From an uncultured bacterium (GTDB lineage Bacteria; Fidelibacterota; Marinisomatia; Marinisomatales; UBA1611), in assembly GCA_943788175.1 (NCBI GenBank), contig CALSPG010000007.1, forward strand, positions 64,001 through 128,000: DNA of 64,000 nt. Direction: 5' to 3'. Below, piece by piece: positions 28,967-56,981 of the stretch. The notes beneath the pieces were generated by a model. It was given only the letters and a program-made list of their open reading frames with translations. It was not told where the DNA came from and did not search any database. A program made the position numbers and the translations under genes. The number at the start of each line of letters is the position of its first letter. Within the stretch, counting starts at the first letter, position 1.

Positions 28967-30757
28967 ATGAAATTTATTTTAATAGTCTCCATTTTTTTAA
29001 ATATTGCTTATTGCAGGCAATACAGGGGTGCAGAATTGCGAACGACAGAATCTTTTCTTTATGGTAGGTTTGATGCTTGTTTTAAGCCAGCTCAGGGCGA
29101 TGGTTTAGTTTCATCTTTTTTCACTTACAATGATGACAACCCTAATACACCTTGGGCGGAGATAGACGTAGAGGTTTTAGGTGTTTATAATAATGTTGTT
29201 GATTTTAATACAATAACAAGGGGTCAAGATTCACATATTAGACAGCACTATGTGGATTTTAACCCACACCTGAATTTTCATACTTATAGCTTTGAATGGA
29301 CACCCGATTATGTAGCCTGGTTTATTGACAATGATGAGGTCTATAGGCAAACAGGGTCTCATGTAGACTCTCTTTATGTATCACAAAAAATTATGATGAA
29401 TATTTGGAATCCAGTATATACGGATTGGGTTGGCTCTTGGGACTCTGAAATCTTACCAAGATTTTCTTATTATGATTATGTTAGTTATTCAGCATATACG
29501 CCCGGGACAGGGGATAATGGTACCGAATCTAATTTCACATTTTCTTGGAAAGATGATTTTGACACTTTTGATGATAATAGGTGGGAAAAAAGTGATGATC
29601 ATACCTGGGGAGGGAATCAATCCCTTTTTATTGATGAGAATATTTATTTTGAAAATGGTAATCTAATTTTATGTCTTACAGATGAAGATAATATTGGGTA
29701 TGTAGATAATTACCCACCCAAAGTTCTTTGGGCCAGACAAAATGAAGATATTTTAACTATTCGGTATAGTGAAGAAATAGATGAGTCCAGCGGTGTTGAA
29801 TTAAGCAATTATAGTTTATCAGGGGTTACATTTACAAATGCATTAATGCATAATGATCAAAGAACTGTTGATCTAACAATGGATCAATTCATCTTAAGCT
29901 CTACTGCTATGGGGATATTTAATGCTCAGGATGATAGTGATAATCTTGCCAGTACAAATATAGTTTGGATTGATATTCCTCAACCTTTGGGGGATACTAT
30001 AAAGATTAATACTGGAGGTGGCCCTGCTGCTGATTTTTTACAAGATCAGATTTGGGGCCCGGATAAAGAATATGGGCATGTTGCAGGTAATTTTCAATTC
30101 GCTAGTGATGATGTAGACATTCAAAATACTGAGAATGATGATATTTATAGATCATCATTAAACAGGGTAGCTCTCTATAAAATTAGAGTTAAACCCGGGG
30201 TCTATTCATTGGGACTATCCTTTTCCGAAAATCACTATGACAATGCGGGAGAAAGAGTTTTTGATATTTTTGTTGAAGGCAATCTCAAGGTAGATGGGCT
30301 TGATGTTCTTGATCATGTCCCAGCTTTTTCTTTATATAATATTAGTCTTGATAATATTGAAGTTCTAGACGGGGTCTTAGATATTCATCTATCTGCAGAT
30401 ATATATGGTGTGGGATATGCTGCTGCCGGAACATTTATTAATAGTATTGAGGTCATGCTTGAAAGTTCACTTTCAAATGACACAAATGTGTTGAATAAAT
30501 TTTCATTGCAAAAACCATATCCAAATCCATTTAATAATCAAATTTCGATTCCCATAATTAGCAATATTAAAAGCAAAGCACTTATAGAAATATTCGATGT
30601 AAATGGTAGAAAAGTTGAAACCATATATAATGGGATAATTTTACAAGGGAAGACTGAATTTAAATGGGATGCAAAATTTTACTCGTCTGGGACTTATTTG
30701 ATATACTTACTTATAAATGGAGAGAAATCGTATGAAAAAATCATGCTTATTAAATAA
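28967..30757 (+). CDS. GH16 licheninase-type (circularly permuted) + Ig-like + malectin domain + T9SS-like CTD
   Basis: YRGAELRT..YGRF, EIDVE, post-core WKDDFD..RW..LILCLT; malectin-like INTGG..FSENHY..GERVFDIFVEG; YPNPFN CTD. Confidence 0.88.
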   Translation: MKFILIVSIFLNIAYCRQYRGAELRTTESFLYGRFDACFKPAQGDGLVSSFFTYNDDNPNTPWAEIDVEVLGVYNNVVDFNTITRGQDSHIRQHYVDFNPHLNFHTYSFEWTPDYVAWFIDNDEVYRQTGSHVDSLYVSQKIMMNIWNPVYTDWVGSWDSEILPRFSYYDYVSYSAYTPGTGDNGTESNFTFSWKDDFDTFDDNRWEKSDDHTWGGNQSLFIDENIYFENGNLILCLTDEDNIGYVDNYPPKVLWARQNEDILTIRYSEEIDESSGVELSNYSLSGVTFTNALMHNDQRTVDLTMDQFILSSTAMGIFNAQDDSDNLASTNIVWIDIPQPLGDTIKINTGGGPAADFLQDQIWGPDKEYGHVAGNFQFASDDVDIQNTENDDIYRSSLNRVALYKIRVKPGVYSLGLSFSENHYDNAGERVFDIFVEGNLKVDGLDVLDHVPAFSLYNISLDNIEVLDGVLDIHLSADIYGVGYAAAGTFINSIEVMLESSLSNDTNVLNKFSLQKPYPNPFNNQISIPIISNIKSKALIEIFDVNGRKVETIYNGIILQGKTEFKWDAKFYSSGTYLIYLLINGEKSYEKIMLIK

Positions 30758-32563
30758 CAAATTAATAAAAACAATAACTTCTATTTTTTTATTTCAGATT
30801 ATGTCATGTAGTTCTATTGATGGTGAAGTAAGCAAGTTAGTTTCATCTATGACTCTTGAAGAAAAAATTGGTCAAATGACGCAGGTTGATTATCGTTACT
30901 TAGCAGATAAGGCTGACATTGGAAAATATTTTTTGGGATCAATTTTAAGTGGTGGTGGCTCTACGCCCCCCACAAACCAGCCATCATCTTGGGTTGATTT
31001 ATATAACAGTTTCCAGGAGAGGCTCTTAAAACCAGGCTTAAGATTCCATTAATATATGGTATTGATGCAGTTCATGGTCATAATAATGTTCTAGGTGCAA
31101 CTATGTTCCCTCATAATATTGGTCTTGGTTGCGCTAATGATAAAGCATTAGTACAAGAAATCGCCGCTGCGACTGCTGCTGAGGTAAAAGCAACTGGTCT
31201 AGATTGGACGTTTGCGCCTTGTGTTGCGGTAGCCCAGGATGAAAGGTGGGGAAGAACCTATGAAAGTTTTTCTGAGGATTCTGAAATAGTAACTGAACTG
31301 GGAGTTGCCTCCACAATAGGATATCAAGGTAGAACGTTAAATAAGAATTCAGTACTTGCTTGTGCAAAACATTTTGTAGGAGATGGTAACACTGTCTTTG
31401 GAACCGGGACGAACTGGTATAAAATTGATCGTGGAGATGTTGTTTTAGATGAAGAAGAATTAAGGAGTAAATATATTAAACCATTTCAAGAGTCTATAAA
31501 AATGGGCGTAGGTAGTATTATGGTTTCATACAATAGCTGGAAAGGGAAAAAACTCCATGGCCATAAATACCTAATTAATGATGTCCTTAAAAAAGAATTA
31601 AAATTTGATGGTATAGTTGTTTCTGATTGGGCTGGGATCAATGAGCTAGATAAAGATTATAAAACATGTATCATTCAATCTATTAATGCTGGGATAGATA
31701 TGAATATGGTTCCCGGTAGCCTGAACCCTGATGATAATTCGTACGATGATTTTATAAGGTTAGCAATAGAGTCCGTTAAAGAAGGTTCTATTCCAATGGA
31801 AAGGATTGATGATGCTGTATCAAGAATATTAAAAATAAAAAAGAAACTAGGACTTTTTGATAAGCCAATTAAAGCTCCAAAAAATACGGATGTAGTTGGT
31901 TCAAAAAAGCATAGAGATTTAGCTAGAAAGAGTGTTCGGAAATCTTTAGTGCTATTAAAGAATAAAGGAGATATTCTTCCTTTAAATAAAGACAGTGGTA
32001 AAATCACATTGGTCGGTGAACACGCAGATAACATTGGATATCAATCTGGGGGCTGGACAATTCATTGGCAGGGTGGTTCCGGAGACATTACACCTGGAAC
32101 AACGATTTTAGATGCGTTTAAATCTGCTGTTGCTGACTCAAACAGTATTCATTATTCTAAATATGGTGAGAATTTATTGAATCCAGATGTGGTTGTGGTC
32201 GCTGTTGGAGAAAAGCCATACTCAGAAGGGGTCGGTGATAGAGAGTCCCTTCACCTTTCAGATGAAGATATCAAACTATTAAAAAAAGTAAAAAATTCTA
32301 ATTTACCTTATGTGGTTGTATTGATATCTGGACGACCAATGATTATTAATGAAGCCTTGGCTGAAAGTGATGCTTTCGTTGCTGCTTGGCTTCCGGGTAC
32401 TGAGGGGGAAGGAATTTCAGATGTTATTTTTGGGGATTATAATTTCACAGGTAGGCTATCTATGACATGGCCTAAATCTATGAAGCAAATACCAATTAAT
32501 TATGGTGACAGCAATTATGACCCCTTATTTCAATTTGGTTTTGGATTATCATATAAAAAATAG
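30732..32563 (+). pseudogene. GH3 beta-glucosidase / exo-beta-1,3-glucanase; split by a -1 frameshift as assembled
   Basis: MTLEEKIGQMTQ in the first ORF; one base missing near 31017-31019 restores FQxEALKTRLKIPLIYGIDAVHGHNNV into ORF 31103-32563 (WGRTYES, AKHFVGDG, VSDW, AWLPGTEG); possible lipobox IMSC. Confidence 0.88.
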
Positions 32564-32574
32564 GTTTTGTTTTA

Positions 32575-35500
32575 ATGCTTAAAAAAATTATTAATTCATT
32601 AATTATTTTTTCATTTTCTTTTTCTCAAAATGTACAATTAAATGAAATAGTCTCTTCAAACCAAAATACCTATTATGATGAAGATGGAGATACGCCTGAT
32701 TGGATTGAACTGTATAATTCTACATCGAATAACATATCACTTAATAATTGGGGTTTATCAGATGATATTGAAGACCCATTTAAGTGGCGTATTCCAAACG
32801 TGATATTAGCACCAGAAGATTTTTTAATGATTCTGGCATCTGATAAAGATCGTGTTGATATGATATCAGAGTGGGAGACTATTATAGATATAGGAGATTC
32901 GTGGTATTACTTTGTAGCTAGCCAAGAGCCAGTCTCAAATTGGAATCAGTTAAGTTTCAATTCTAGTAGTTGGAGTATTGGTCCGAGCGGTTTTGGATAT
33001 GGTGATGGTGATGATAATACTGAAATCACTAATACTGTTTCTGTTTATCTCATTAAACCTTTTTCAATAACAGATTTTGACCAAATTAAAAAGTTAGCTT
33101 TTCATATTGATTATGATGATGGTTTTGTAGCTTATTTAAATGGTAACGAGTTTGCTAGAGATAATATTGAAGGAACGCCACCTGCATTCAACCAAGGTAC
33201 ATTAACATGGCGTGAAGCAGAAATGATAAATGGTGGGTCTCCTTCTCTTTTTTGGGTTGATTCAGCTGAAGCATGGGTTAATGAAGGACCTAATGTCCTA
33301 GCAATTCAAGTTCATAATTTTAATAGTAGTTCTTCGGATTTAACATGCATTCCTTTTTTTACTTTAGGTAGAAATTCTCATTCAGGTAGTGCTCCAACTA
33401 TCGCTGAAGAAATAGACTTACCACTTTCAATTCTTCACTCTAATTTTAAGATTAGTTCTAACGGAGAGACTATTTTGATGACAGATTCAGATAGTGTTTT
33501 AGTTGATTCTATTTATACAGGAATTCTTCAATCTGATGTATCAATTGGTAGAATAAATGATGGTGAAAATTATGGTCTATTTTTAGAACCCACCCCAGCT
33601 GAAACAAATGGGGAAGAATCTGTACTAGGGGTTTTAAATGATATTACATTTTCACAAGAATCTGGTTTTTACAATTTAGCCATACTACCTGTTTCAATAA
33701 CTACTTCAGATGAAGATGCCGCTATTTATTATACATTAGATGGTTCTGAACCAACGATAAATTCAATTTTATATACTAATAATCCAATATTGATTTCAGA
33801 AAATAGAGTATTAAGAGCTACTAGTTTTAAAGCTAACTGGATAAGCTCTCCAATTAAAACTGCGACGTTTATTTTAGAAAGTGGGGATAACAACTTTCCT
33901 ACAATCTTTTTATCAACTAACCCTGATAATTTTTTCGATTTCAACACCGGGATATATGAAATGGGTCCCAATGCTTCTCAAGATTATCCACATTTTGGTG
34001 CAAACTTTTGGGAAGATTGGGAGAAACCTATTTTCTTAGAAGTGTTAGAAACCGATGGTACTTATTTTTCTGCTCCAGCTGGAGTTAAAATTTTTGGCGG
34101 GTGGAGCAGGGGACAGTCCCAAAAATCCTTGTCTCTTTTTGCGAGGAGTCAATATGGAGCTTCAGAATTTAATTATCGTTTTTTCCCTGATTTAGAATTA
34201 GAGGACTTTCAGTCCTTAGTATTACGTAACTCTGGAAATGATTGGAGCTTTACGATGCTAAGAGATGGGTTTATGACAAGTATTTTTCATGATGTGGATC
34301 TTGACGTTCAGAGCTATCGACCAATGCTAGTGTATTTAAATGGTGAGTTTTGGGGTTTGTACAATCTTAGAGAAAAAGTAAATGAGCACTTTATAGCTGG
34401 ACATCACCCTGTTGATCCTGATGAAATAGATTTAATTGAAGTTCAAACCGCAAATGAAGGGTCCATTGATGATTATGATGAATTGCTTGATTATGTAACT
34501 CAATCTGATATGACTGACCCTATTGTTTTTGATTCACTATCAAAATGGATTGATATTGATAACCACATAGATTATAACATTGCTCAAATTTTTATTGATA
34601 ATAGAGATTGGCCTGGTAATAATATCAAATATTGGAGGCCACAACAAAATGATGGGTTATGGCGGTGGATTTTGTATGATACAGATTTTGGATTTGGAAT
34701 TCCTTGGAATGGTCAAGGTTATGATTATAACACACTTTTATTCGCCCTTGAAGAAAACGGACCAGGATGGCCAAATCCGCCTTATTCTACATTTTTATTA
34801 AGAAAACTTTTTGAGAATTCAGATTATAGAGATCGATTTGTTAATATATTTTGTGATAGGCTTAACACTGTTTTTAAGTCAGCGTTTTTGAACGGAAGAA
34901 TAAATGAGATGGCATCTTATATCCAAGATATAATACCTTTTCATCGTGGCAAGTGGCCTAATTCAGCTCAAGATTGGAATTACCATATTGAAATTTTAGA
35001 AAACTTTGCTAATAATAGATCTTTATATGTAAGGCAGCATTTATCAAGCTTTTTTAATTTATCTAGTCCTGCCTTGGTAACATTTATTTCTAGTCTAGGT
35101 GGTGAAATTAAAATTAATTCTATTTTCCCGGATTCTTATCCCTGGGCTGGATATTACTATCCCAGCGTCCCAATTGAAATTGAGGCGATACCAGAAGATG
35201 GATACAGGTTTATTGGCTGGGCTCAATACTCAGATTCAACCGCCAAAATGAAAGTTCAAATTTCTAACAATTCAATGATAACAGCATTATTTGAAGAAAT
35301 ACCTGGCGACGCCACAATTGATTTAGTGATAAATGAAATTAATTATAATAGTTCTGACCAATTTGATACAGGTGACTGGGTTGAACTTTATAACAATGGT
35401 TCTGAGCGGATAGATATATCAGGTTGGTATTTCACAGATGAAAATGAAGACAATAAGTTTATTTTTCCTGAAAATTCGAATATTGATCCAAATGCTTATA

Positions 35501-36108
35501 TTGTTTTAGCCCAAAATGTAGAATCTTTTTTAGCTCTTTTCCCCGAGACTTCTAATCTATATGGTTCTTTTAATTTTGGCCTTAGTGGAGGAGGAGAAGA
35601 AATTAGTTTGTATGATGCTTCTGATGCGTTAGTTGATCAAGTTGAATATAATGATGATCTACCTTGGCCAACTGAGCCAGATGGGAATGGGCCCACTCTT
35701 GAGCTTATGCATCCAGACTCATTAAATGAATTTTCCAGTAGCTGGGGGTCTTCCGCTGGGAATGGAACACCAGGTTATATAAATAGTATATTTGAAACTT
35801 TAAAAAACACAGAGGATGAAATTAATCCCTCTGATCGTATTTTATATTCTGTTTTCCCCAACCCATTTAATTCACATGTTAAAATTATTTTTGATATTGT
35901 AAAAATGAGTCAAATCAATTTCACCATTGTTAATATATTAGGTGAAAAGGTACGCACATTTGAAAATCAAAATTACTCTAGTGGATTAAACACTTTAGTT
36001 TGGGACGGTAAAAATAATTTTGGACAAGACTTAAGTACTGGTATTTATTTTTGCAGGTTAAAATCAAAAAATATTGATAAGAGCATTAAACTTCTTTACG
36101 TAAAATAA
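32575..36108 (+). CDS. CotH kinase-family protein with lamin-tail domains and T9SS-like CTD
   Basis: LNEIVSSN..DWIELYN and INEINYN..DWVELYN lamin-tail motifs; LRNSGND, YNLREK, NRDWPGNN, WILYDTDFG; FPNPFN CTD. Confidence 0.88.
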   Translation: MLKKIINSLIIFSFSFSQNVQLNEIVSSNQNTYYDEDGDTPDWIELYNSTSNNISLNNWGLSDDIEDPFKWRIPNVILAPEDFLMILASDKDRVDMISEWETIIDIGDSWYYFVASQEPVSNWNQLSFNSSSWSIGPSGFGYGDGDDNTEITNTVSVYLIKPFSITDFDQIKKLAFHIDYDDGFVAYLNGNEFARDNIEGTPPAFNQGTLTWREAEMINGGSPSLFWVDSAEAWVNEGPNVLAIQVHNFNSSSSDLTCIPFFTLGRNSHSGSAPTIAEEIDLPLSILHSNFKISSNGETILMTDSDSVLVDSIYTGILQSDVSIGRINDGENYGLFLEPTPAETNGEESVLGVLNDITFSQESGFYNLAILPVSITTSDEDAAIYYTLDGSEPTINSILYTNNPILISENRVLRATSFKANWISSPIKTATFILESGDNNFPTIFLSTNPDNFFDFNTGIYEMGPNASQDYPHFGANFWEDWEKPIFLEVLETDGTYFSAPAGVKIFGGWSRGQSQKSLSLFARSQYGASEFNYRFFPDLELEDFQSLVLRNSGNDWSFTMLRDGFMTSIFHDVDLDVQSYRPMLVYLNGEFWGLYNLREKVNEHFIAGHHPVDPDEIDLIEVQTANEGSIDDYDELLDYVTQSDMTDPIVFDSLSKWIDIDNHIDYNIAQIFIDNRDWPGNNIKYWRPQQNDGLWRWILYDTDFGFGIPWNGQGYDYNTLLFALEENGPGWPNPPYSTFLLRKLFENSDYRDRFVNIFCDRLNTVFKSAFLNGRINEMASYIQDIIPFHRGKWPNSAQDWNYHIEILENFANNRSLYVRQHLSSFFNLSSPALVTFISSLGGEIKINSIFPDSYPWAGYYYPSVPIEIEAIPEDGYRFIGWAQYSDSTAKMKVQISNNSMITALFEEIPGDATIDLVINEINYNSSDQFDTGDWVELYNNGSERIDISGWYFTDENEDNKFIFPENSNIDPNAYIVLAQNVESFLALFPETSNLYGSFNFGLSGGGEEISLYDASDALVDQVEYNDDLPWPTEPDGNGPTLELMHPDSLNEFSSSWGSSAGNGTPGYINSIFETLKNTEDEINPSDRILYSVFPNPFNSHVKIIFDIVKMSQINFTIVNILGEKVRTFENQNYSSGLNTLVWDGKNNFGQDLSTGIYFCRLKSKNIDKSIKLLYVK

Positions 36109-41421: not shown

Positions 41422-42009
41422 ATGGTAAAAGCAAAACATATTAAACTTATTCTATTAATATTCGCTGGGGTTCATTTATTTAATTGTGCGGGTACAAATT
41501 ATAAAAAAATGAGTATTGAAGACCCTCGTTCGCTATTAGCGATTCAAGATTCGCTAATACTTGAAAACAAAAACAATCAAAATATTATGGATGCTCTAAT
41601 GACAGCTAATAACAATATGGGTAAAAACTATCTAATAAAAGGAGAATTGTTTTTAGCTATTGATCATTTTAAAAAAGCTATTTCTTTAAATAGTGAAAAT
41701 AAATTCTCTAAATATAGTTTGTTAATTGCTGAGGGCCGTGTGCTGATAAAAAGAGGAAATAAAAATGGTATGTGGGATGCTATTGAAAAGTTTTCAAAAG
41801 CTTCAAGTTTTTTCCCAGACAAAGGGGAGCCCTTTTATTGGATGGCTATTTCTTATACAAAACTAGGCGATACTGAATTTGATTTAATTCTTGAATCTTA
41901 CGAAAAATCTTTATCTTTGGAGTTAAGTGAAAATATTAAGAGTGAGGTTGAAAAAAAGTATGAAAAAGCAAAAAAGCGAAAACAAAAACTTGATTCATTT
42001 TGGAAATAA
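41422..42009 (+). CDS. TPR-repeat lipoprotein
   Basis: Lipobox LFNC; TPR-like helices AIDHFKKAISLN, AIEKFSKA, PFYWMAISY. Confidence 0.75.
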   Translation: MVKAKHIKLILLIFAGVHLFNCAGTNYKKMSIEDPRSLLAIQDSLILENKNNQNIMDALMTANNNMGKNYLIKGELFLAIDHFKKAISLNSENKFSKYSLLIAEGRVLIKRGNKNGMWDAIEKFSKASSFFPDKGEPFYWMAISYTKLGDTEFDLILESYEKSLSLELSENIKSEVEKKYEKAKKRKQKLDSFWK

Positions 42010-45585: not shown

Positions 45586-46374
45586 ATGGATATTGCATTA
45601 ATTATAGGTGTTGTACTCGGTTTAGCTGCTATGATTGGTAGTATTGCTTATGCTCTATTTGTTGAGGGGTCAGCAGGGGGTTTTGGTAATTTTCTATCAG
45701 CACCTAGTTTTGGAATTGTATTTGGAGGTATGATAGCCTCTATTTTTGTTGCATTTCCGATGCCACACGTGGTTGCGCTAGGAAAAGCTATTGGAGCAGT
45801 GCTTAAACCAGCAGATGATAAGATGGGTGGATTAGTCGACGAAGCAGTTGAAGTTGCAGATGTCGGACGAAAAGGAGCAGCTGATCTCGAAAAATCAGTT
45901 GATAGTATTAAAAATTATTTTTTTAAAGATGGCGTGCAAATGGTTGTTGATGGCTACTCTTTAGACGAAATCACAGAAATTATGGAAACCAGAATTGAAT
46001 ACAGAGAGAAAAGGGAAAATGTTCAGAAATCCATGCTTAAATCTATGGGCGACCTTGCTCCTGCTTGGGGTATGGTAGGAACTCTAATTGGTTTAGTACT
46101 CATGTTAGCTGGTTTTGGTGGAGAAGGTGGAGCAGATAACCTTGGTGGTGGTATGGCGGCAGCGCTCATTACGACTCTTTACGGAGCTGTATTTGCCAAC
46201 TTGTTTTTTCTTCCAATGGCAGATAAAATGGGTAATAAAACTACTCAAACATCTATGTCAGCAGCGCTTTTAGTAGAGGCTGCTCGATTGATACATCAAA
46301 AGAAGCACCCATTAATCGTGCGAGAAAAATTAAACTCTTTCATTCCTCCTGGAGAGTGGAAATCAGAGGGCTAA
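45586..46374 (+). CDS. motA: Flagellar-type stator A subunit (MotA/PomA)
   Basis: Four TM segments; IVFGG, GRKG..LE, FFKDGVQMVVDG, APAWGMVGTLIGLV, MAAALITTLYG. Confidence 0.95.
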   Translation: MDIALIIGVVLGLAAMIGSIAYALFVEGSAGGFGNFLSAPSFGIVFGGMIASIFVAFPMPHVVALGKAIGAVLKPADDKMGGLVDEAVEVADVGRKGAADLEKSVDSIKNYFFKDGVQMVVDGYSLDEITEIMETRIEYREKRENVQKSMLKSMGDLAPAWGMVGTLIGLVLMLAGFGGEGGADNLGGGMAAALITTLYGAVFANLFFLPMADKMGNKTTQTSMSAALLVEAARLIHQKKHPLIVREKLNSFIPPGEWKSEG

Positions 46375-46383
46375 GGTTCTTTT

Positions 46384-47265
46384 ATGGCTGGAGCAGAATT
46401 CAAAAAAGGTTATAATAAAGGTTTCGCAGCTGGAGCGGACTCTGTTGAAGAGGGGCTTCCTGGATGGTTTGGAACGTTTGCAGACATGATGACTCTATTG
46501 TTTGCTTTTTTTGTATTATTAGCTGCTATTTCAACAATGGACCCTGTAAAGTTACAAGAGATGTCTAATTCTGAGGGTAAATCTCTTGGTAGTAAAATCA
46601 AATCTTCTGGAAAAGCCGAACTTGAAGGAGAGTTTGAGCCAATTAAAAATTTAGCTGCCATGAAAAAAGAAATGGAAGAAACCATTGAAGAAATGAAAAA
46701 AGAAAGCCCTAAAGGAGATCCTCCCATTGATATTCAAACTAGTTCAAAAGGGCTAATAGTGAATATTAAAGGTGATTACGCTTTCCCGATTGGTAAGGCA
46801 TCAATGAAAGAGGAGTTAAAAGGACTTTTAGATGAAGAAATAATACCTAAAATCCAAAATAGTCCATTCCAGGTAGAGGTCGCTGGGCATTCAGATTCTG
46901 ATAGAATGCCAAAAAAATGGAGGAAAACTTTTGCAACTAACTGGGAACTTTCTGCAGCAAGAGGTGCAAGTGTTGTAAGATATATGATAGATAAAGGGAT
47001 ACCCGCTCCAAGGCTATTAGCAGCTGGATACGGACCTTGGGCTCCGCACGGACTCGATAGTGTAAAAAAACAAAATCCGATGTGGAACCCGTTAACTCTG
47101 ACTTGGAAAAAGGCAGTTTTAACTAAAGATGGTAAAGAAATGCCAACGGTTTTGGGTCTTAATAAAAATGAAAAAATGAAGTCTAAAAACAGAAGAATTC
47201 AAATTACTTTTTTAAATCCGCCACATCATGGTAAGGGGCGGTCAGCAACTAGTTATGATGAATAA
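46384..47265 (+). CDS. motB: Flagellar-type stator B subunit (MotB/PomB) with OmpA-like peptidoglycan-binding domain
   Basis: WFGTFADMMTLLFAFFVLL with the essential Asp; VAGHSD, NWELSAARG, AGYG, NRRIQI. Confidence 0.95.
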   Translation: MAGAEFKKGYNKGFAAGADSVEEGLPGWFGTFADMMTLLFAFFVLLAAISTMDPVKLQEMSNSEGKSLGSKIKSSGKAELEGEFEPIKNLAAMKKEMEETIEEMKKESPKGDPPIDIQTSSKGLIVNIKGDYAFPIGKASMKEELKGLLDEEIIPKIQNSPFQVEVAGHSDSDRMPKKWRKTFATNWELSAARGASVVRYMIDKGIPAPRLLAAGYGPWAPHGLDSVKKQNPMWNPLTLTWKKAVLTKDGKEMPTVLGLNKNEKMKSKNRRIQITFLNPPHHGKGRSATSYDE

Positions 47266-47286
47266 ATACATACCGAGGAGTATTTC

Positions 47287-49098
47287 ATGATAAAAACAGG
47301 TTTAAATCTTAAAAAGAAGTTAGCAGTATTTATGCTAGCTGGTCTTTTAGTTGGGCAAGGTTCTGGCTACTTAGCACAGAAGCTAATGGTTGAAAATAAT
47401 ATTAGAGAGAGAGTTAAAGATGCTTTATCTAAAATTATTGACAATAATAAATACGTTATAAATGTTGATATAGATTTAGAGATTAGCGATGAAGTCGAAG
47501 AACAAATCACTGTATTGGCTGAAAGAGAATCAAGGCGTTCAGTAGTTGAAGATTCAAATGAAGAAACCGAAACTGAGAAATCATTATCAAGTATTCAACA
47601 ATCTATAGAATCAGAAGAAACATCTGAAAGGTCGAGTTATTCAGTGGGACTACCTATACCTGGGTTTGAGATGGACTTCACTAATTCAAATAAAAGTAAT
47701 AAAAAATCTGAAGAACCGAGACCACCTGTGATGTCTGTTGAAACTAAAAAACCTATTCAGGTTTCAAGTGTTGACAGGGACGCTAGCGAACCTAGGGTTG
47801 ATAAGGTTTTATCTAGAACTCGTCCTTCAAGAGCAGAAATTAAAAAAATGTATATTAGCTTGATTTTACAAGAAGGTGCTGCACCAGAATTAATTGAAAA
47901 TATTCGTCAATTGACAATGGCTGCCGCAAAATTTGATAGAAATCGTGGTGACAAGCTTACTATTATGACAGCAAGTTTTAGAGAAAAAAGAGATCAGCGC
48001 TCCGCAGAGCAGATTATGTTGAAAAACATCGCTGAAAAAATTGAATTATTAGAACAAAAAAGAGAATACGAAGAAAACACGCAAGATGCTACATGGAAAG
48101 ATGAGTTAACTAAATACAGGGATGAAGAAACTGCTAGACGAGAAGATGATAGAAGATTTTTCGAAGGTCAGATATCGCAATTAGAGCAACAGGCCAAAAA
48201 CAGAGCTTATAATCAAGAAAAACAAGATATGCTGTTGAGAGACTCTCTGAAGTTAAAAAAATTGAATGACGAAATTATGGCGCTTAAGTCAATGCTAAGG
48301 TCTTCTGAAAGAAGAGATAGTTTAAAAACAATCAGTAAGCAAGAACGAATTGATTCTCTAAGGTATGTTAGTCTAAGCAGTGAGTTAGATGAATTAGCAA
48401 AATCTCTTCAAGTGGCAGTAAAAACCAAATCAAAAGATGAAGAAGTTATAGCAAAGCGTAAGATTCAGGCTGAGATGGAAGATAGAGAAAAGCAAAAAGA
48501 AGAAAGAGAAAAAGAAATTTCTGATAAGATTCGTGAGCTTGATAGCGTCCAAGAAGAACTTGATCAGCTCCATGAAAACATGGAAAAAGAGAGCGGGAAT
48601 ACATTTATTATTTTAATTGCTCTAGGCGCTATTGTCTTTTTATTAATAATTGCATTAATTTTTATTTTATTAAAAAACAATAATAGGCAGGCTCCTGTCC
48701 CTCCTTGGATGATGCCTCCACCTCCTCGTAAACCAAGGAGAAGAAAAAGAGAAACTTCAAAAGAAAAAAAACCTATTGAAGCAAAAAAAATTGAAGAGCC
48801 AGCAGTTGTCGTACCTGAGCCAAAGCCTGAGCAAGCTGAAGTAAGCCAACCTGCTGAAAATACTTCTGGGCAAGAAAGTTCTTTACCATCAAGTGACGAT
48901 GATCCCGATGTCGTTCGTAGTGAAATAAATGATATCCGGAAATCAGTTGTATCCATGAGCGTTGGTCAGCCAGATAGAACTACAACTATTGTTAAGGAAT
49001 GGTTAGAACAACCAGAGCCTACACCTACAGCAGAGCCTGAGCAAGAATCTGCTGAAGATCCAGCAGATGGTAGTGATTCTGAAGAAAAAGAAAAGTAA
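47287..49098 (+). CDS. Remodelled FliF-like ring protein (RBM3 + long coiled coil + TM + FliG-binding tail)
   Basis: ENNIRERVKDALSKII..VINVDIDL and IENIRQLTMAAAKFDRNRGDKLTIMTASF match the two halves of FliF RBM3; TM at residues 440-462; tail QPDRTTTIVKEWL; directly upstream of fliG. Confidence 0.8.
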   Translation: MIKTGLNLKKKLAVFMLAGLLVGQGSGYLAQKLMVENNIRERVKDALSKIIDNNKYVINVDIDLEISDEVEEQITVLAERESRRSVVEDSNEETETEKSLSSIQQSIESEETSERSSYSVGLPIPGFEMDFTNSNKSNKKSEEPRPPVMSVETKKPIQVSSVDRDASEPRVDKVLSRTRPSRAEIKKMYISLILQEGAAPELIENIRQLTMAAAKFDRNRGDKLTIMTASFREKRDQRSAEQIMLKNIAEKIELLEQKREYEENTQDATWKDELTKYRDEETARREDDRRFFEGQISQLEQQAKNRAYNQEKQDMLLRDSLKLKKLNDEIMALKSMLRSSERRDSLKTISKQERIDSLRYVSLSSELDELAKSLQVAVKTKSKDEEVIAKRKIQAEMEDREKQKEEREKEISDKIRELDSVQEELDQLHENMEKESGNTFIILIALGAIVFLLIIALIFILLKNNNRQAPVPPWMMPPPPRKPRRRKRETSKEKKPIEAKKIEEPAVVVPEPKPEQAEVSQPAENTSGQESSLPSSDDDPDVVRSEINDIRKSVVSMSVGQPDRTTTIVKEWLEQPEPTPTAEPEQESAEDPADGSDSEEKEK

Positions 49099-49115
49099 GG
49101 ATAAGAGGTTAAGAT

Positions 49116-50060
49116 ATGATTACAGATTATAATCGCCTATCAGGGCTTCACAAAGTCGCAATTCTTTTCTCAGTGCTTGGTGAGAGTCTTGCTATGTCTC
49201 TTATTAAAGGCTTGTCTCGTACAGAAGTTCGAAAAATACGAGCAACTATTCGCGAAATGGGTAATGTTTCCTTTACTCTAAAAAGACGAGTTATGGAGGA
49301 ATTTTATTTTGGGTTTCTGAGCGAACAATTCTCTGATGAAAGTGATAATAATGAAGACGAAGGACCTATTAAGCCTTTTGAGTTTTTAACTGAAATGACA
49401 GATGAGCAACTTATTGCATTATTAGCAAATGAAGATGTCCCAGTTGTAGGAATTGCATTAGCTCAATTAGACGCAGGTAAAAGAATGACTATTTTAGAGC
49501 GAATGAAGCCTGAACAAAAAGGTAAAGTCCTTATTGAACTTGGTAGTTTACAAGAAATTCCATTAGAAGCTATTGTAGAAGTAGCTGGGAAGCTTAAAGA
49601 AAAAGCATCTTATCTACCAAAACCAGTAGAGTTTTCTAGAGGGGGAGCGAAAGAAATTGCTGACTTAATAGGAGAAATGGATGCAGACGAAGGTGAAAGA
49701 TATATGCAAACTCTTCAGAATGAAAATTCAGAGCTTTATAAAGCTGTAAAAATGCTTGTTCTAACGTTTGAAGATATTTTAGATAATTTCCCAGATGGAA
49801 TTTTAAGAGATCTTTGTAATAGTGTTGAGCTTGATTCTTTGTCTATGGCTATGAAAGGCATAGATCAAGAGGTCGTAGATAGGGTAGTGGGTAATTTGCC
49901 TCAAAAGAAACAAGCCATGTTTGAACCAGTAGAGGGGCCTAAACCAAAAAGAGAAGTTGATGATGCTAGAAAAATTATTGTTTCTGCAGCGAAAGAAATG
50001 GAAAAAGAAGGAGCTTTTAATTTAGCTGATATGATGGGCGGCGGAGAGATGGTAGAGTAG
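49116..50060 (+). CDS. fliG: Rotor protein FliG (divergent)
   Basis: LSGLHKVAILFSVLGE N-domain, GG linker (SRGGAKEIADLI), LTFEDI, LSMAMKG, GP..REVDDARKIIV..EKEG C-domain. Confidence 0.92.
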   Translation: MITDYNRLSGLHKVAILFSVLGESLAMSLIKGLSRTEVRKIRATIREMGNVSFTLKRRVMEEFYFGFLSEQFSDESDNNEDEGPIKPFEFLTEMTDEQLIALLANEDVPVVGIALAQLDAGKRMTILERMKPEQKGKVLIELGSLQEIPLEAIVEVAGKLKEKASYLPKPVEFSRGGAKEIADLIGEMDADEGERYMQTLQNENSELYKAVKMLVLTFEDILDNFPDGILRDLCNSVELDSLSMAMKGIDQEVVDRVVGNLPQKKQAMFEPVEGPKPKREVDDARKIIVSAAKEMEKEGAFNLADMMGGGEMVE

Positions 50061-53897: not shown

Positions 53898-56800
53898 TTA
53901 AAAAACAGGGGAGAAGTATCTTATTTCTTTTAAATTCCCTTTATTGTTATAAAAATACCATTTATCAACCATTTTTCCACTTTTATATGCACCTTGCATT
54001 TCTTTGCGTGTCTTATCATAATCTCGCCAACTCGTCCAGGTACCGTCTTTTTTCCCATTTAGATATTCACCCTCTGTAAGTTTTCCATCCTCAAAATATG
54101 CTATCCATTTCCCGTTTTTGAGACCTTCGTTAAAAAGTCCTTCCTGAGTTTTTTTACCGCTCTCATTGTAAAACACCCACTTACTATGCGCATTACCATT
54201 TTTTAAGGTACCTTCTTTTTCTTTTTCTCCATTTTTATAATAAAATGTCCATTTACCATTGTAAATACCATTTTCATAGGTACCAATATCTTTTATTTGT
54301 TGGTTAGAGTAGTATGTTGTCCATAAGCCGTGTTTTTTGCCATCTTTATATGCTCCTAAAGTTTCTTTTCCACCGCTCCATGTTCCTCTGGGTTGAGGCT
54401 CTGGAACAGGCATTAAAACAACTTCAGGGACTTTTTTGCTCTCGTACCACCTAATCCAAGGTCCGTCTTTTTTACCATTCAGTAATCTACCTAAAAATAA
54501 ATACTCTTCTTCTTTGTTTTCATCTGCGATTACACCGGTAAACGGTTTGGTATTATCATTAATTTTATAGAGTAGTTCAGTTTCGTCAATTTTAGATAAA
54601 TCTTTAAATTTTACATGGTCAAGGTTTTTTCCGTAGTCAAAAGTAAAATCAACTTGCCCATCTTTATTCCAGTAAGTCCAAACACCTTCGGGTTTAGAAA
54701 GATTTTTTTCAATATTGGCAGATAAGTTTCCTTCTTTCTTCTTACTACCGTTTTTATAAAAATATGTAGTTAACCCATCTTTAATATTCTTTTTGTGGAA
54801 CCCTTGTTCCATAATTTGGTCACTATTTAAATACCAAGTTACCCATGGGCCATTTGCTATCTCTTTTCCTGTTTCAGATTCTCCTTTATAAGTAATCATT
54901 TTTGACCTGAAACCATCAATCCAAGATGTTGCAGGTCCGTTAAGCTCTCCGTTTTTCCAAAATTTTTCGTATTGTTTTCCTAGACTATCTGACGAAGAGA
55001 TAACCCATTTAGTTTCTCTTCCATTTAGGAGATCATTTGAATAAGTAAGCTCTTGAGTTACAGCTCCATCTTTATTGTAGTAAAGCCAAAGTCCAGATCT
55101 TTCATTTTTTGAAAATGTTCCCTCACTGCTTTTTATTCCTGTTGGAAACCACGAAAACCAAGCGCCCTCCTTTAAGCCGTCTATGTAGTATCCCTCTTCT
55201 TCTTTATTGTCGTTTAAATACCACCACCAGCTCCACAATTCATTACTTTCATCTTTATAGACACCATCTTTGTATTCCCAGTTTCCATTTTCTACATATT
55301 TAAGAGTGGGGTCTTCTTTATACCATTTTGTCCATCTGCCATGCGGGAGCCCTTTTTTATACCGTTGTTCTTCTTTTAGATGCCCATTATCAAACCAATA
55401 TTTATATAAGCTATCAACTTTCCCGAAACTAAAAGTTCCTTGTTCCTTTGATTTACCATTATTATACGAAAGAGACCATTCCCCGTGTTTTTTACCTCTA
55501 TAATATTCACCTTGGACTTCAACTTGTCCGTTATCATACCACTGAACCCATTTACCATCTCTCGCACCATCTAAAAATCTTCCAAGAAGTTTGTATCCTC
55601 TTTTACCACCAATTTCTTCAACGATTCCAGTATAAGGCTCATATTTACCAATCTTGTAAGTAATACCATCACGTTCTTCAATTTCACCTAAAGTGACTCT
55701 CTCTAAACCATCACCGTAATCAAATTTTAGCCACCTTTTTCCACCTTTTTCCCAATAAGTCCATTCGCCTTCTCTTTCTTTACCTCTCATGATGCCTTGT
55801 CTATCAATGTCACCTTCTTTATACCATTTGGTCACATTACCGTCGATTATATCATTTACAAAAGTTTCTTCATGGAGTTTATGATATGCAGCTCCAGAAG
55901 AATCATTCCAAACGGTCCATACACCATGTTTTTTTTCTTCTTTGTAGAAGCCTTCTTTGTCTTTGAGCCCATTGCTTCTCCACCAAACCCAGGGGCCATC
56001 TTTTTGACCTTCAAGATAGCTAGACTTGAGGGAGTCTACCCCGGTTGTATACCAATAATGCCAAGCACCATCTCTATCACCATTTTTAAAATTTTTATGA
56101 AACTTTTTGTGCTGATCACTTGAATCGCCAAACCATTTAATATGCGGCCCATTTTTAATACCAGTATTATAATTTATTTCTTCACTTTTCTGTCCGTTTT
56201 TACCCCAAAAAACCCATTTATTGTGTTTTTTGTTATCAATGTAATCTCCATCTTGTTCTTTGATTATTCCACCTTGGTACCAACGAATGTATTTACCGTT
56301 GAGTTTTCCATCACTATAAGTAGCAAGAAATCTTTTATTACCATTTTCATACCAAGTGTTCCAGGTGCTATCTCTTTCACCGTTTTTAAAGTTTCTTTCT
56401 CTTCTTTTTTGGCCATCTTCAAACCATTCTGTCCACAAACCTTCTTGTACACCATCGATGTAAAAGGTTTCTTCTTTTTTAATTCCGGTTTCTTTGTAAT
56501 AGAGTGTCCACAACCCTTGCTGCTTTCCATTAATGTAGTTTTTTTCTTCTATTTTGTTACCATTAGAGTTCCAGTAAGATTGCAGGCCACTAAACTTACC
56601 GTTAGAATAATTTAGTTCAGTTTTTCTTTTTCCATCCTTAAAAAATTCTGTCCATGTTCCATCTCGGTTGCCATTTAAGTAGTTGCCTTGGAGTTTTAAT
56701 TTTGGTTTAAATTCTGGGATAACTACTTCGATTGAGTCCCACCGTCCATTATTTTCTAGTGTATCTTTAGTATTGGCTTCACCATCTTCACCGTAATCAT

Positions 56801-56981
56801 ACCACCATACTTCTTGCCAATATTCTGCCCAAGCACCATTTCGAACACCGTTGGCATAATTACCTTCTACCTTCAGTCCACCATCAGGATATTTAGTAAC
56901 AACTAAACCATTGTTCTGTGCCCACATTGCAGATAGCAGTAAAACCGCAGTAAGTAACTGTTTCATAGTTTTTATATACAT
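53898..56981 (-). CDS. Large exported MORN-variant repeat protein (YwqK-like repeats)
   Basis: Signal peptide; dozens of ~24-aa G.W..WY.NG.K..EG.Y.NG units across 1027 aa. Confidence 0.88.
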   Translation of the reverse strand: MYIKTMKQLLTAVLLLSAMWAQNNGLVVTKYPDGGLKVEGNYANGVRNGAWAEYWQEVWWYDYGEDGEANTKDTLENNGRWDSIEVVIPEFKPKLKLQGNYLNGNRDGTWTEFFKDGKRKTELNYSNGKFSGLQSYWNSNGNKIEEKNYINGKQQGLWTLYYKETGIKKEETFYIDGVQEGLWTEWFEDGQKRRERNFKNGERDSTWNTWYENGNKRFLATYSDGKLNGKYIRWYQGGIIKEQDGDYIDNKKHNKWVFWGKNGQKSEEINYNTGIKNGPHIKWFGDSSDQHKKFHKNFKNGDRDGAWHYWYTTGVDSLKSSYLEGQKDGPWVWWRSNGLKDKEGFYKEEKKHGVWTVWNDSSGAAYHKLHEETFVNDIIDGNVTKWYKEGDIDRQGIMRGKEREGEWTYWEKGGKRWLKFDYGDGLERVTLGEIEERDGITYKIGKYEPYTGIVEEIGGKRGYKLLGRFLDGARDGKWVQWYDNGQVEVQGEYYRGKKHGEWSLSYNNGKSKEQGTFSFGKVDSLYKYWFDNGHLKEEQRYKKGLPHGRWTKWYKEDPTLKYVENGNWEYKDGVYKDESNELWSWWWYLNDNKEEEGYYIDGLKEGAWFSWFPTGIKSSEGTFSKNERSGLWLYYNKDGAVTQELTYSNDLLNGRETKWVISSSDSLGKQYEKFWKNGELNGPATSWIDGFRSKMITYKGESETGKEIANGPWVTWYLNSDQIMEQGFHKKNIKDGLTTYFYKNGSKKKEGNLSANIEKNLSKPEGVWTYWNKDGQVDFTFDYGKNLDHVKFKDLSKIDETELLYKINDNTKPFTGVIADENKEEEYLFLGRLLNGKKDGPWIRWYESKKVPEVVLMPVPEPQPRGTWSGGKETLGAYKDGKKHGLWTTYYSNQQIKDIGTYENGIYNGKWTFYYKNGEKEKEGTLKNGNAHSKWVFYNESGKKTQEGLFNEGLKNGKWIAYFEDGKLTEGEYLNGKKDGTWTSWRDYDKTRKEMQGAYKSGKMVDKWYFYNNKGNLKEIRYFSPVF

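Follow-up and report, generated by a model that had tools for sequence, protein, structure and literature searches.

The locus described here raises the question of what use a cell may have for a FliF-like ring protein that is encoded beside a FliG-like rotor protein and a MotA/MotB stator. To our knowledge, the flagellar rotor occurs only within the flagellum, where it is built around the type III export gate. We examined the gene, its neighbors and its relatives starting from the window, a 64,000-nucleotide stretch of a contig from an uncultured bacterium of the Marinimicrobia/Fidelibacterota phylum, for which a first-pass annotation had been made. In the best reading of the sequence, the cluster would encode an ion-driven rotor of FliG-like and FliF-like proteins whose mechanical work is done at the outer membrane or within the periplasm. 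We put the chances at about even that the FliF-like protein is the ring-forming subunit of such a non-flagellar rotor of the flagellar type, a reading in which we infer cleavage, ring formation, rotation, partners and output. The features discussed are listed in Table 1.

Table 1. Genes of the cluster and segments of the FliF-like protein, in positions of the window.
Feature	Position (nt)	Strand	Basis or description
TPR protein, 195 aa, first gene of the cluster	41422..42009	+	Pfam TPR_2/TPR_1; lipobox-like ...LFNC N-terminus read from the translation
Secreted protein, 387 aa	42148..43311	+	CarboxypepD_reg-like beta-sandwich, coiled coil, small Lepto_7_Nterm-like domain, C-terminal beta-rich domain
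Protein of 304 aa	43289..44203	+	N-terminal hydrophobic segment, coiled coil, C-terminal TPRs (BamD/YbgF-like, weak)
Outer-membrane-barrel-like protein, 459 aa	44203..45582	+	Signal peptide, about 12 beta strands (45-271), disordered linker, 75-residue helix (308-382), C-terminal TPR
MotA/PomA-type stator A subunit, 262 aa	45586..46374	+	Pfam MotA_ExbB, E 3e-27
MotB-type stator B subunit, 293 aa, plug and OmpA-like peptidoglycan-binding domain	46384..47265	+	Pfam MotB_plug E 9e-15, OmpA E 7e-10
FliF-like ORF	47287-49098	+	603 aa
Probable cleavable signal peptide, residues 1-23 (cleavage before Q24)	47287..47355	+	N-terminal sequence and Q24 conservation
RBM3 first half, residues 24-76	47356..47514	+	Pfam, TIGR00206, AlphaFold2, Foldseek, VIA-align
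RBM3 insert, residues 77-172, at the FliF beta-collar position	47515..47802	+	Acidic, Ser-rich, predicted disordered
GLPIPGFE motif in the insert, residues 121-128	47647-47670	+	Conservation
RBM3 second half, residues 173-231, ending RGDKLTIMTASF	47803..47979	+	Pfam, conservation, AlphaFold2, VIA-align
Stalk helix A, residues 237-345	47995..48321	+	AlphaFold2, pLDDT about 90; leucine-zipper-like end
Stalk hinge, residues 346-353	48322..48345	+	Helix break, pLDDT <50 (AlphaFold2)
Stalk helix B, residues 354-439, membrane-proximal	48346..48603	+	AlphaFold2 model; length varies by clade
Transmembrane helix, residues 440-462	48604..48672	+	Hydropathy up to 3.44; helical in model
Cytoplasmic Pro/Lys/Arg-rich linker, residues 463-539	48673..48903	+	Sequence composition
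Two-helix tail, residues 540-574, motif IRKSVVSMSVGQP..T..IVKEWL, presumed FliG-binding element	48904..49008	+	AlphaFold2 helices 540-560, 562-574
FliG-like rotor protein, 314 aa, N, M and C domains	49116..50060	+	Pfam

Domain architecture of the FliF-like protein

The first-pass annotation had described a signal-like N-terminus followed at once by an RBM3 domain split by a long insert, with RBM1 and RBM2 missing, and each of these points held. The order of the protein is a signal-like N-terminus, a split RBM3 with an insert of ~96 residues, ~200 Pro-free helical residues, a transmembrane (TM) helix, a linker and a tail. Residues 1-11 are Lys-rich and are followed by a weakly hydrophobic stretch (residues 12-30; 1.59 in a 19-residue Kyte-Doolittle window), after which stands a conserved small-x-small/Q site of the kind that is typical for signal peptidase I in the host genome. 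Q24 is near-invariant among 36 homologues and invariant among 10, and by a crude heuristic the AxA-like sites in signal-like N-termini of the same genome are followed by Q more often than by any other residue (64 of 339, against a background of 3.1%). The segment resembles a signal peptide that is removed to leave Q at +1, rather than the TM1 of flagellar FliF, and its cleavage would free the ring from the membrane. Only about 8 residues separate Q24 from the start of RBM3.

The RBM3 assignment rests on sequence profiles and on the predicted fold. Residues 47-231 match the full length of Pfam YscJ_FliF_C (PF08345; profile positions 1-147) at E 3e-7, with 31.4 bits where the cut-off is 23.8, and positions 241-457 of TIGR00206 (fliF) align with residues 32-254; the whole protein misses the TIGR00206 equivalog cut-off (21.7 vs. 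129.75 bits). In the AlphaFold2 model both halves are predicted with a pLDDT >90, the first as a helix (26-47) and strands 56-67 and 70-76, and the second as strands 173-179 and 182-195, a helix (200-213) and a final strand (223-229). Every one of the best 18 Foldseek matches of this model is a FliF MS-ring/RBM3 chain (E 9e-7 to 2e-5), VIA-align scores it at Z 15.6 against Vibrio FliF and 15.5 against Salmonella FliF, superposing residues 22-231 on residues 228-437 of the latter, and a profile of the FliF-like family (A1) matches Salmonella FliF at E 9e-9. F231, the last residue of RGDKLTIMTASF, is invariant in the 36 homologues. PrgK/EscJ, SpoIIIAG, SpoIIIAH and SpoIIIAF share the same small alpha/beta ring-building fold, but their VIA-align scores (Z 8.3 for PrgK domain 2, 7.6 for SpoIIIAH, 7.3 for SpoIIIAG and 7.0 for SpoIIIAF) are far below that of FliF RBM3, and none of them has a FliG-binding tail or is co-encoded with MotAB/FliG.

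RBM1 and RBM2 of FliF surround the export gate. The profile for these domains (PF01514, YscJ_FliF) gave no match on the FliF-like protein at E≤1, a clear difference from flagellar FliF, and none elsewhere in the 92%-complete genome. The insert, like that of flagellar FliF, lies at the position of the beta collar, a structure that is also formed by the insert of SpoIIIAG. Its pLDDT is mostly <50, and any collar or docking role for a region predicted to be disordered is speculative. Residues G121-F127 of its GLPIPGFE motif are invariant in 10 homologues and form the consensus in 36.

Downstream of the stalk, the single TM helix and Pro-rich linker of the first-pass annotation were recovered, with 22 Pro within residues 466-603; the passage from a TM helix into a cytoplasmic tail that bears a FliF-type C-terminal motif is a further likeness to flagellar FliF. 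The tail had been called FliG-binding, a role that is presumed here. It is a conserved two-helix element in which W572 is invariant among the 36 homologues, and a sub-threshold alignment places it on residues 564-579 of the Vibrio FliF C-terminus. Prediction of a complex between the tail and the N domain of the FliG-like protein gave an ipSAE of 0.42 over three runs, compared to 0.00 for the best of 3 controls, with a partner pLDDT of at least 59 and a contact agreement of at least 69%; this was graded as weak support. When the method was calibrated, 58 of 80 solved complexes and 2 of 110 mismatches attained the mark, but only 7 of the 80 scored ≤0.60. Since a similar complex (FliF-C with FliG-N) has already been solved, the pass may reflect likeness.

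Length and geometry of the stalk

In Salmonella FliF, RBM3 is followed by the TM helix within about 20 residues in a profile alignment, whereas about 200 helical residues intervene here. The first-pass annotation had read them as a heptad-rich coiled coil of about the same length. Of residues 235-436, 47% are charged, with no Pro and a single Gly in 202 residues, in keeping with that description. However, the heptads are patchy (best-phase a/d hydrophobic occupancy 0.38-0.75 in 28-residue windows), with zipper-like stretches interspersed among highly charged ones that lack a hydrophobic seam, and the helix is broken at residues 346-353. AlphaFold2 predicts helices at 237-345 and 354-464, the second running on through the TM helix. 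The stalk should be periplasmic because Lys and Arg cluster behind the TM helix and at the very start of the protein, a FliF-type motif is found in the tail and the FliG-like gene comes next; a cytoplasmic location, which would have undone the first-pass proposal, is not what these features point to.

Stalk length had been proposed as a further check, and the outcome was mixed. It is tightly kept within clades (e.g., 152-154 residues over many loci only 33-40% identical to the query), but between clades it falls into discrete classes of about 42 (42-43), 122, 154 and 195-203 residues. Helix A is near-constant: of 82 homologues with the zipper motif, 68 have 95-104 residues between RBM3 and the end of the zipper. 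The remaining span, up to the TM helix, is bimodal in these 82 homologues (50-59 residues in 57 and 90-109 in 20). Many members of the ~154-residue class have a Pro 109-114 residues past RBM3, at the hinge.

These observations bear on the proposal that the stalk is a straight coiled coil of ~200 residues reaching up to ~30 nm, which would place the RBM3 ring just under the outer membrane and make the protein a drive shaft or cage. The periplasmic helical stalk and the absence of an export gate stood; the straight ~30-nm reach to the outer membrane was not established, and the idea that the protein acts in place of the rod is purely inferential. Several findings would suit a straight shaft. The N-terminus looks cleavable, with Q conserved at +1, so that the ring would have no tie to the inner membrane; Pro is absent from the helical region and Gly occurs once; a full hairpin is impossible in the ~154-residue class, whose arms are unequal (about 100-110 vs. 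40-55 residues); the cluster also encodes an outer-membrane barrel that carries a periplasmic helix and TPR; and length is kept within clades as if by a ruler. However, the hinge is conserved, and in VIA-align straight coiled coils fit the AlphaFold monomer with an rmsd of 85-108 Å, while the only full-span match of low rmsd is the folded elbow of cohesin (11.8 Å over 238 residues). These values are weak evidence that the stalk of the monomer is folded at the hinge, as long helices are often folded back on themselves in AlphaFold monomers. The patchy heptads count against a straight shaft as well, and stalks of only 42-43 residues, together with the classes of about 122 and 154, imply that the reach is not constant. 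Moreover, MotB binds peptidoglycan, so a wide rotating cage would presumably have to cross the wall. We therefore consider a straight shaft unlikely; given the hinge, the folded model and the clade-variable length, 30 nm is an upper bound and not an estimate.

A conserved cluster with a flagellar-type stator and FliG

The genes are co-directional, in the order TPR lipoprotein, periplasmic proteins, outer-membrane barrel/TPR protein, MotA, MotB, FliF-like protein and FliG-like protein, and the cluster is conserved. We compared 80 related loci, found by a scan of genome contigs with patterns from 10 close relatives only, and identified homologues by blastp; misses fell mostly at contig ends. The FliG-like gene adjoins the FliF-like gene in 79 of these loci. 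MotB is present in 77 and MotA in 73, where MotA shows the strongest conservation of any gene in the cluster (55-100% identity), and the barrel protein also in 73 (53-98% identity). The 387-aa protein was found in 63 and the 195-aa TPR protein upstream in 55, many of the loci ending at contig ends, while the fast-diverging 304-aa protein was found in 40 (23-91% identity).

The neighbors upstream of the stator, TPR and outer-membrane proteins, are unlike those of a flagellum. Matches of the 387-aa protein to Pfam and NCBIfam are below or near the cut-offs, and its Atlas clusters (at 0.91-0.98) are all from Fidelibacterota. The 304-aa protein matches Pfam TPR_6 and TPR_2 and has weak NCBIfam matches. 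The 459-aa protein matches Pfam TPR_2 over residues 403-436, and its AlphaFold2 model, of low confidence (mean pLDDT 58.5), gave 79 PDB matches at E≤0.001 in Foldseek, headed by FapF, PorV (6h3i_F), OmpG, KdgM and NanC. The combination recalls the Agl-Glt gliding machinery of Myxococcus, in which the genes for a motor of the MotAB/TolQR family accompany those for an envelope-spanning set of TPR-rich periplasmic proteins, lipoproteins and outer-membrane barrels. However, Agl-Glt is not known to have a FliG or a FliF-type ring.

The motor genes, in contrast, resemble those of the flagellum. MotA has the MotA_ExbB channel domain and the four-TM architecture of the flagellar type, and aligns over its full length with MotA and PomA in the PDB (E 2e-36 to 4e-34); in NCBIfam it comes closest to MotP (E 2e-52) and PomA, in either case under the equivalog cut-off, and none of the MotA, MotB, FliG and FliF proteins of the cluster reaches such a cut-off. 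The FliG-like protein, the sole match to FliG_C in its genome, has all three FliG domains above the Pfam cut-offs (FliG_N E 2.5e-13, FliG_M E 1.9e-8, FliG_C E 1.2e-20) and matches FliG in the PDB at E 4e-17, with a score of 101.5 bits against the 226.7 required for TIGR00207. In alignment with Thermotoga maritima FliG, its torque-helix region is poorly conserved, as is the FliM-binding EHPQR motif of the middle domain ('sEHPQt' faces 'nEDVPv'). Stator coupling could therefore differ from the flagellar type.

This divergence would suit an assembly that does not rotate: a scaffold standing still across the envelope, or a sensor with MotAB and FliG serving as a regulated ion channel or clutch. 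That TPR-rich partners are typical of scaffolds agrees with such an assembly, as does the failure to find a switch complex (FliMN_C, in this genome) or chemotaxis genes (CheW, in 0 of 11 genomes of the host's family). However, the full-length MotA is the gene most strongly conserved in the cluster and aligns end to end with solved flagellar stators, MotB retains its plug and peptidoglycan-binding domain, and no domain of FliG has been lost. Taken together, we regard a non-rotating assembly as distinctly unlikely.

A module separate from the flagellum

The first-pass annotation had proposed that no export gate is housed by the FliF-like protein, and the genome bears this out. Profiles for FlhA (FHIPEP), RBM1/2 (YscJ_FliF), FliM/N (FliMN_C) and the rod (Flg_bb_rod) found nothing in the 92%-complete genome, although each was matched in 4 named flagellated control genomes. 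Across 201 genomes of the phylum, profile A1 matches 132 and FHIPEP is above its cut-off in 48; by a hand count across two tables, the FliF-like gene occurs in 100 of 153 FlhA-negative and 32 of 48 FlhA-positive genomes. Its absence from 69 genomes indicates that it is dispensable.

The module is independent of the flagellum. Five flagellated genomes were examined, and in all 5 the gene for a canonical, RBM1/2-containing FliF (518-536 aa) adjoins that for a canonical FliG (345-371 aa) at one locus, and a shorter second FliG (306-328 aa) adjoins the FliF-like gene at another, which makes the latter a paralogous non-flagellar module and not a relic. Divergence between the two is deep: the FliG-like protein is 20-23% identical to the canonical FliG of the phylum, and the FliF-like protein matches canonical FliF at E 0.016 at best. 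A representative search with the FliF-like family gave 210 clusters at E≤0.001; judged by their length and the pattern of the match, none of the best 150 of the 210 was recognized as a canonical FliF, and the named members are all Marinimicrobia, Neomarinimicrobiota or Fidelibacterota, save for one partial protein labelled as a Gammaproteobacteria MAG.

Another candidate for the output is type IX secretion (T9SS). In Bacteroidota, GldLM/PorLM is the ion-driven inner-membrane motor of type IX secretion and gliding, with a GldM dimer inside a GldL pentamer, and the module could be the missing counterpart in this phylum, feeding energy to the SprA translocon. Both would combine an inner-membrane ion motor with an elongated, periplasm-spanning part that carries mechanical energy towards an outer-membrane complex, and both occur in the same superphylum in cells with T9SS cargo and SprA: the window encodes two enzymes with Por_Secre_tail domains, SprA is present in this genome, SprA_N was found in 197 of the 201 genomes, and PorV is among the structural look-alikes of the barrel protein. 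GldM was found in 0 of 201 phylum genomes, and neither GldL nor GldM_1st in this genome, but the same searches matched none of 14 named control genomes, so that divergent homologues may have been missed. The proposed geometry also differs, in that a large ring of the FliG/FliF type would be the mover, with stators outside it. More tellingly, the distribution of the FliF-like gene does not track that of SprA. Among the 69 genomes without the gene are all 13 from family f3 and 28 of the 33 from family f24, whereas SprA is present in 13 of 13 and 31 of 33, respectively. The translocon is therefore independent of the FliF-like gene; SprA also lies about 215 kb from the cluster on the same contig. 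Whole families with SprA but without the FliF-like gene rule out a type IX motor as the main reading, and the chance that the module serves as one is slim.

Selection on the FliF-like gene is strong and purifying. Compared to a related locus (L010), dN/dS is 0.01 in RBM3, 0.01 in helix A, 0.08 in helix B, 0.16 in the insert and 0.20 in the linker, and 0 in the tail (dN 0). A decaying remnant of flagellar fliF left after loss of the flagellum would account for a genome without detected flagellar export or axial genes and a protein without RBM1/2, but it is very improbable, being contradicted by this selection, by intact ORFs in a cluster conserved over 80 loci with non-flagellar genes as its fixed neighbors, by the separate and complete canonical FliF/FliG pair in all five flagellated genomes, and by the low identity of the FliG-like protein to canonical FliG.

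Proposed mechanism

We propose that the cluster encodes a free-standing rotor that would work as follows. Removal of the signal peptide would leave the FliF-like protein with a single pass through the membrane, and its cytoplasmic tail may recruit the co-encoded FliG-like protein. At the periplasmic end, RBM3 would oligomerize into a ring, as it does in FliF, joined to the membrane by the two-segment stalk (about 109 residues of helix A, the hinge and about 86 residues of helix B). The peptidoglycan-anchored MotA/MotB stator would use an ion gradient to turn the FliG/FliF-like ring. Because there is no export gate, rod or switch complex, torque would not be spent on spinning a filament; its recipients would lie in the periplasm and are most likely the barrel/TPR, periplasmic TPR and beta-sandwich proteins of the cluster, with GLPIPGFE as a candidate docking peptide for periplasmic or outer-membrane partners. 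The variable helix B may set the distance of the ring or hinge from the inner membrane. By reasoning alone, a stalked ring turning through peptidoglycan is hard to picture, which favors a compact or folded geometry.

Possible significance

It is possible, although we lean against it, that the module represents an undescribed class of envelope machine, in which a MotAB-driven FliG/FliF ring was never coupled to a type III export gate, or no longer is, and the rotation of a stalked periplasmic ring does work at the outer membrane. A full-text search of openly accessible papers found none that describes a MotAB/FliG/FliF-like module, and the words Marinimicrobia and Fidelibacter do not occur in the passages of PMC12505986 and PMC13277936 that were consulted. 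If the proposal is correct, the work done could be, for example, surface motility on marine particles or the movement of an outer-membrane complex, and the deep divergence from the FliF/FliG of the phylum's own flagella would offer a living example of the free-standing rotor-stator intermediate that models of flagellar origin need. A conserved module that has neither an export gate, a rod or a switch nor any chemotaxis genes would demonstrate that a rotor can exist and be selected alone, a matter that touches on how rotor and export apparatus were joined and how many kinds of ion-driven rotary machine bacteria possess. Of the uncultured groups in the dark ocean, SAR406/Marinimicrobia is one of the most abundant; with carriers in such a group, the function of the module, whether particle motility, outer-membrane mechanics or support of secretion, may matter ecologically.

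Occurrence in RNA libraries and among strains

Metatranscriptome contigs can contain DNA, and the presence of the cluster in RNA libraries is therefore short of proof of transcription. Contigs from four marine libraries (four studies) cover it at an identity of at least 95%, mostly at least 99%, and bridge gene junctions, e.g., 45808-48497 and 48071-49704. Strains are distinguished by a 12-nt insertion behind position 48813, in the linker of the FliF-like protein.

Domain architecture and topology

By its sequence, the FliF-like protein belongs to the YscJ_FliF_C domain family, with a full-profile Pfam match (residues 47-231; 31.4 bits vs. a gathering score of 23.8), and positions 241-457 of the NCBIfam fliF model align with residues 32-254 (21.7 bits vs. 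a cut-off of 129.75). Profile searches returned no match to RBM1/2 (PF01514) on the protein or in its own genome. In an AlphaFold2 model built on an alignment of 36 homologues, the alpha/beta domain has a pLDDT above 90, and all 18 Foldseek matches at E<=2e-5 were FliF MS-ring/RBM3 structures. VIA-align superposed model residues 22-231 on Salmonella FliF 228-437 (Z 15.5), which places the insert, predicted to be disordered outside its conserved motif, at the position of the FliF beta-collar. Together, these results bear out the layout described in the first-pass annotation: RBM3 without RBM1/2, then a helical stalk, one TM segment and a FliF-type tail. The protein is not FliF proper, as it lacks RBM1/2, falls below the equivalog score and has no export apparatus. 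NCBI labels its relatives "FliF C-terminal domain-containing protein", and a full-text literature search found no description of the module.

Features of the FliF-like protein and of other genes (regional dN/dS is against the 91%-identical homologue in the related locus L010)
Feature	Position	Description	dN/dS
FliF-like gene	window 47287-49098 (+)	603 residues; cluster gene 7
RBM3	residues 26-76, 173-229	alpha/beta domain	0.01
Insert	residues 77-172	96 residues	0.16
Insert motif	residues 121-128	GLPIPGFE, conserved
Helix A	residues 237-345	stalk	0.01
Hinge	residues 346-353	helix break
Helix B	residues 354-439	stalk; predicted helix continues to 464	0.08
TM segment	residues 440-462
Linker		Pro/Lys/Arg-rich, cytoplasmic	0.20
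Tail		two short helices	0
Linker insertion	window 48813	12 nt, in frame
Cluster gene 1		TPR lipoprotein-like
Cluster gene 2		secreted beta-sandwich/coiled-coil
Cluster gene 3		coiled-coil/TPR
Cluster gene 4		459 aa; modelled 12-strand barrel, 75-residue helix, TPRs
Cluster gene 5		MotA
Cluster gene 6		MotB, plug and OmpA-like domain
Cluster gene 8		314-aa FliG homologue, N, M and C domains
CTD ORFs	window 28967-30757, 32575-36108	T9SS C-terminal sorting domains
Glycoside hydrolase ORFs	window 30717-31052 (+), 31103-32563 (+)	111 and 486 aa
Repeat protein	window 53898-56981 (-)	1027 aa, secreted
SprA match	G000:C7:328244-334275	source genome

The N-terminus is Lys-rich, followed by LAVFMLAGLLVG and then Q24, which is nearly invariant across the family; in the homologues inspected, Q (+1) follows a small residue (-1). 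This segment is probably cleaved, in which case the mature protein would be single-pass with RBM3 free in the periplasm. The pattern is reminiscent of the "Q-rule" for signal peptidase I substrates in Bacteroidetes, described in PMC5837995 and PMC10653852. According to the former, the rule does not hold throughout the FCB group, and the sole support for this phylum is therefore a count in the source genome: by a crude heuristic, Gln follows the AxA-like sites of signal-like N-termini more often than any other residue (64/339 vs. a 3.1% background), which suggests a similar rule outside Bacteroidota. Lys and Arg are dense behind the TM helix, which together with the FliF-type tail would put the C-terminus in the cytoplasm. 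The tail helices bear IRKSVVSMSVGQP..T..IVKEWL, with W572 invariant among the 36 homologues. Contigs of two metatranscriptome runs carry an insertion of four extra residues in the linker; it matches 607-aa variants from the protein search and is thus strain-level length variation.

Stalk geometry

The stretch 235-436 lacks proline, has a single glycine and consists of charged residues to 47%. The proposed coiled coil of ~200 residues holds as a predicted helix-rich region, but it is broken at the hinge and its heptad periodicity is patchy. Among homologues, RBM3-to-TM distances fall into classes of about 115-124, 145-164 and 191-203 residues, with a few of merely 42-43, and within a class stalk length is constant to within a few residues at 33-50% identity. 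In 82 sequences with a zipper motif at the helix A end, the distal segment is 95-104 residues in 68 and the membrane-proximal segment is bimodal (50-59 residues in 57, 90-109 in 20), making helix B the variable part. By dN/dS, helix A is under the same constraint as the ring domain, favouring specific packing over a mere spacer.

The stalk of the AlphaFold monomer seems to fold at the hinge: a folded cohesin elbow fits the stalk model with an rmsd of 11.8 A over 238 residues, and straight coiled coils differ from residues 232-470 by 85-108 A (both VIA-align). In a folded stalk, helix B would climb away from the membrane over its 86 residues, about 13 nm at 0.15 nm per residue, and the 109 residues of helix A (about 16 nm) would lead back down, leaving the ring near the inner membrane beneath hairpins arranged as a palisade. 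In an extended stalk, the ring could lie up to about 30 nm out; the reach of ~30 nm first envisaged thus survives as an upper limit. A full hairpin is impossible for homologues that pair an arm of about 100 residues with one of about 50, and this speaks for an elbow at least partly open. Given the MotB peptidoglycan anchor, a wide cage rotating through the wall would be unattractive.

Gene cluster and relation to known systems

The cluster comprises eight co-directional genes. Its MotA can be aligned over the full length with solved structures of flagellar MotA and PomA (E 2e-36), and PDB look-alikes of the low-confidence 459-aa model are outer-membrane barrels including FapF, PorV and OmpG. 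Gene order is kept among 80 related loci of other genomes, which encode the FliG-like protein (79/80), MotB (77/80), MotA (73/80), the barrel (73/80) and the beta-sandwich protein (63/80), absences being mostly at contig ends. Marine metatranscriptome contigs from libraries of four studies span the cluster and cross the junctions between its genes, a pattern that fits expression without proving it, because such libraries can hold DNA.

The module could instead be the motor of T9SS. SprA_N matches 197/201 genomes of the phylum sample, CTD cargo is encoded in the window, and GldM matched 0/201 genomes and GldL none in the source genome, in searches that had no positive control. However, families f3 and f24 largely lack the FliF-like gene (present in 0/13 and 5/33) yet keep SprA, and we consider this role unlikely. 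The SprA match in the source genome is broken into four pieces, of which one contains an in-gene TGA, and may be a frameshifted gene or reflect assembly errors.

In the source genome (92% complete, 12 contigs) FHIPEP, YscJ_FliF, FliMN_C and Flg_bb_rod had no match, in searches positive for named flagellated controls; FliG_C had one match, and CheW was found in 0/11 genomes of the family. The FliF-like profile matched 132/201 phylum genomes and FHIPEP 48/201 above cut-off. By hand count, 100 genomes have the FliF-like gene without FlhA and 32 have both, including one (G030) that matches at E 1e-5 only. In all five genomes checked among those with both genes, one locus pairs canonical FliF (518-536 aa, with RBM1/2) with canonical FliG, and another pairs the FliF-like gene with a second FliG of shorter length. 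The window FliG-like protein is 20-23% identical to these canonical FliGs, and the FliF-like protein is barely alignable with the phylum's canonical FliF (E 0.016). Separate loci and deep divergence mark the module, on sequence, as an old paralogue that shares the flagellar rotor's ancestry, and a flagellar relic was rejected. Named family members are Marinimicrobia, Neomarinimicrobiota or Fidelibacterota, except one partial protein labelled as a Gammaproteobacteria MAG. The streamlined ~1 Mb genomes of f3 (0.8-1.1 Mb) lack FlhA as well (13/13), a pattern consistent with an optional, costly trait.

Proposed mechanism

Tentatively, the module may represent a rotary envelope machine in a class of its own. 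FliG-like subunits would bind the cytoplasmic tail: complex prediction gave ipSAE 0.42 in three runs vs. 0.00 in three controls, weak support that may reflect memory of a like complex already solved, and the tail motif has sub-threshold similarity to the Vibrio FliF C-terminus. Wall-fixed MotAB stators would turn the FliG/FliF-like ring. The motor would be unswitched, since FliM/N and CheW are absent and the FliM-binding motif of the FliG-like middle domain is degenerate in alignment. Torque would pass via stalks and RBM3 ring to upstream-encoded periplasmic or outer-membrane partners, the TPR domains and the insert's proline-rich motif being the obvious candidate pairing. In function this would resemble GldLM or Agl-Glt, which carry inner-membrane energy to an outer-membrane complex.

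Other genes in the window

The two adjoining glycoside hydrolase ORFs read as one secreted enzyme, the shorter resembling its N-terminal part and the longer its main part, and a split or a frameshift may have divided the gene. The repeat protein is built almost entirely from short repeats rich in Gly, Trp and Tyr that by eye look MORN/YwqK-like; it too has Q after a signal-like N-terminus.
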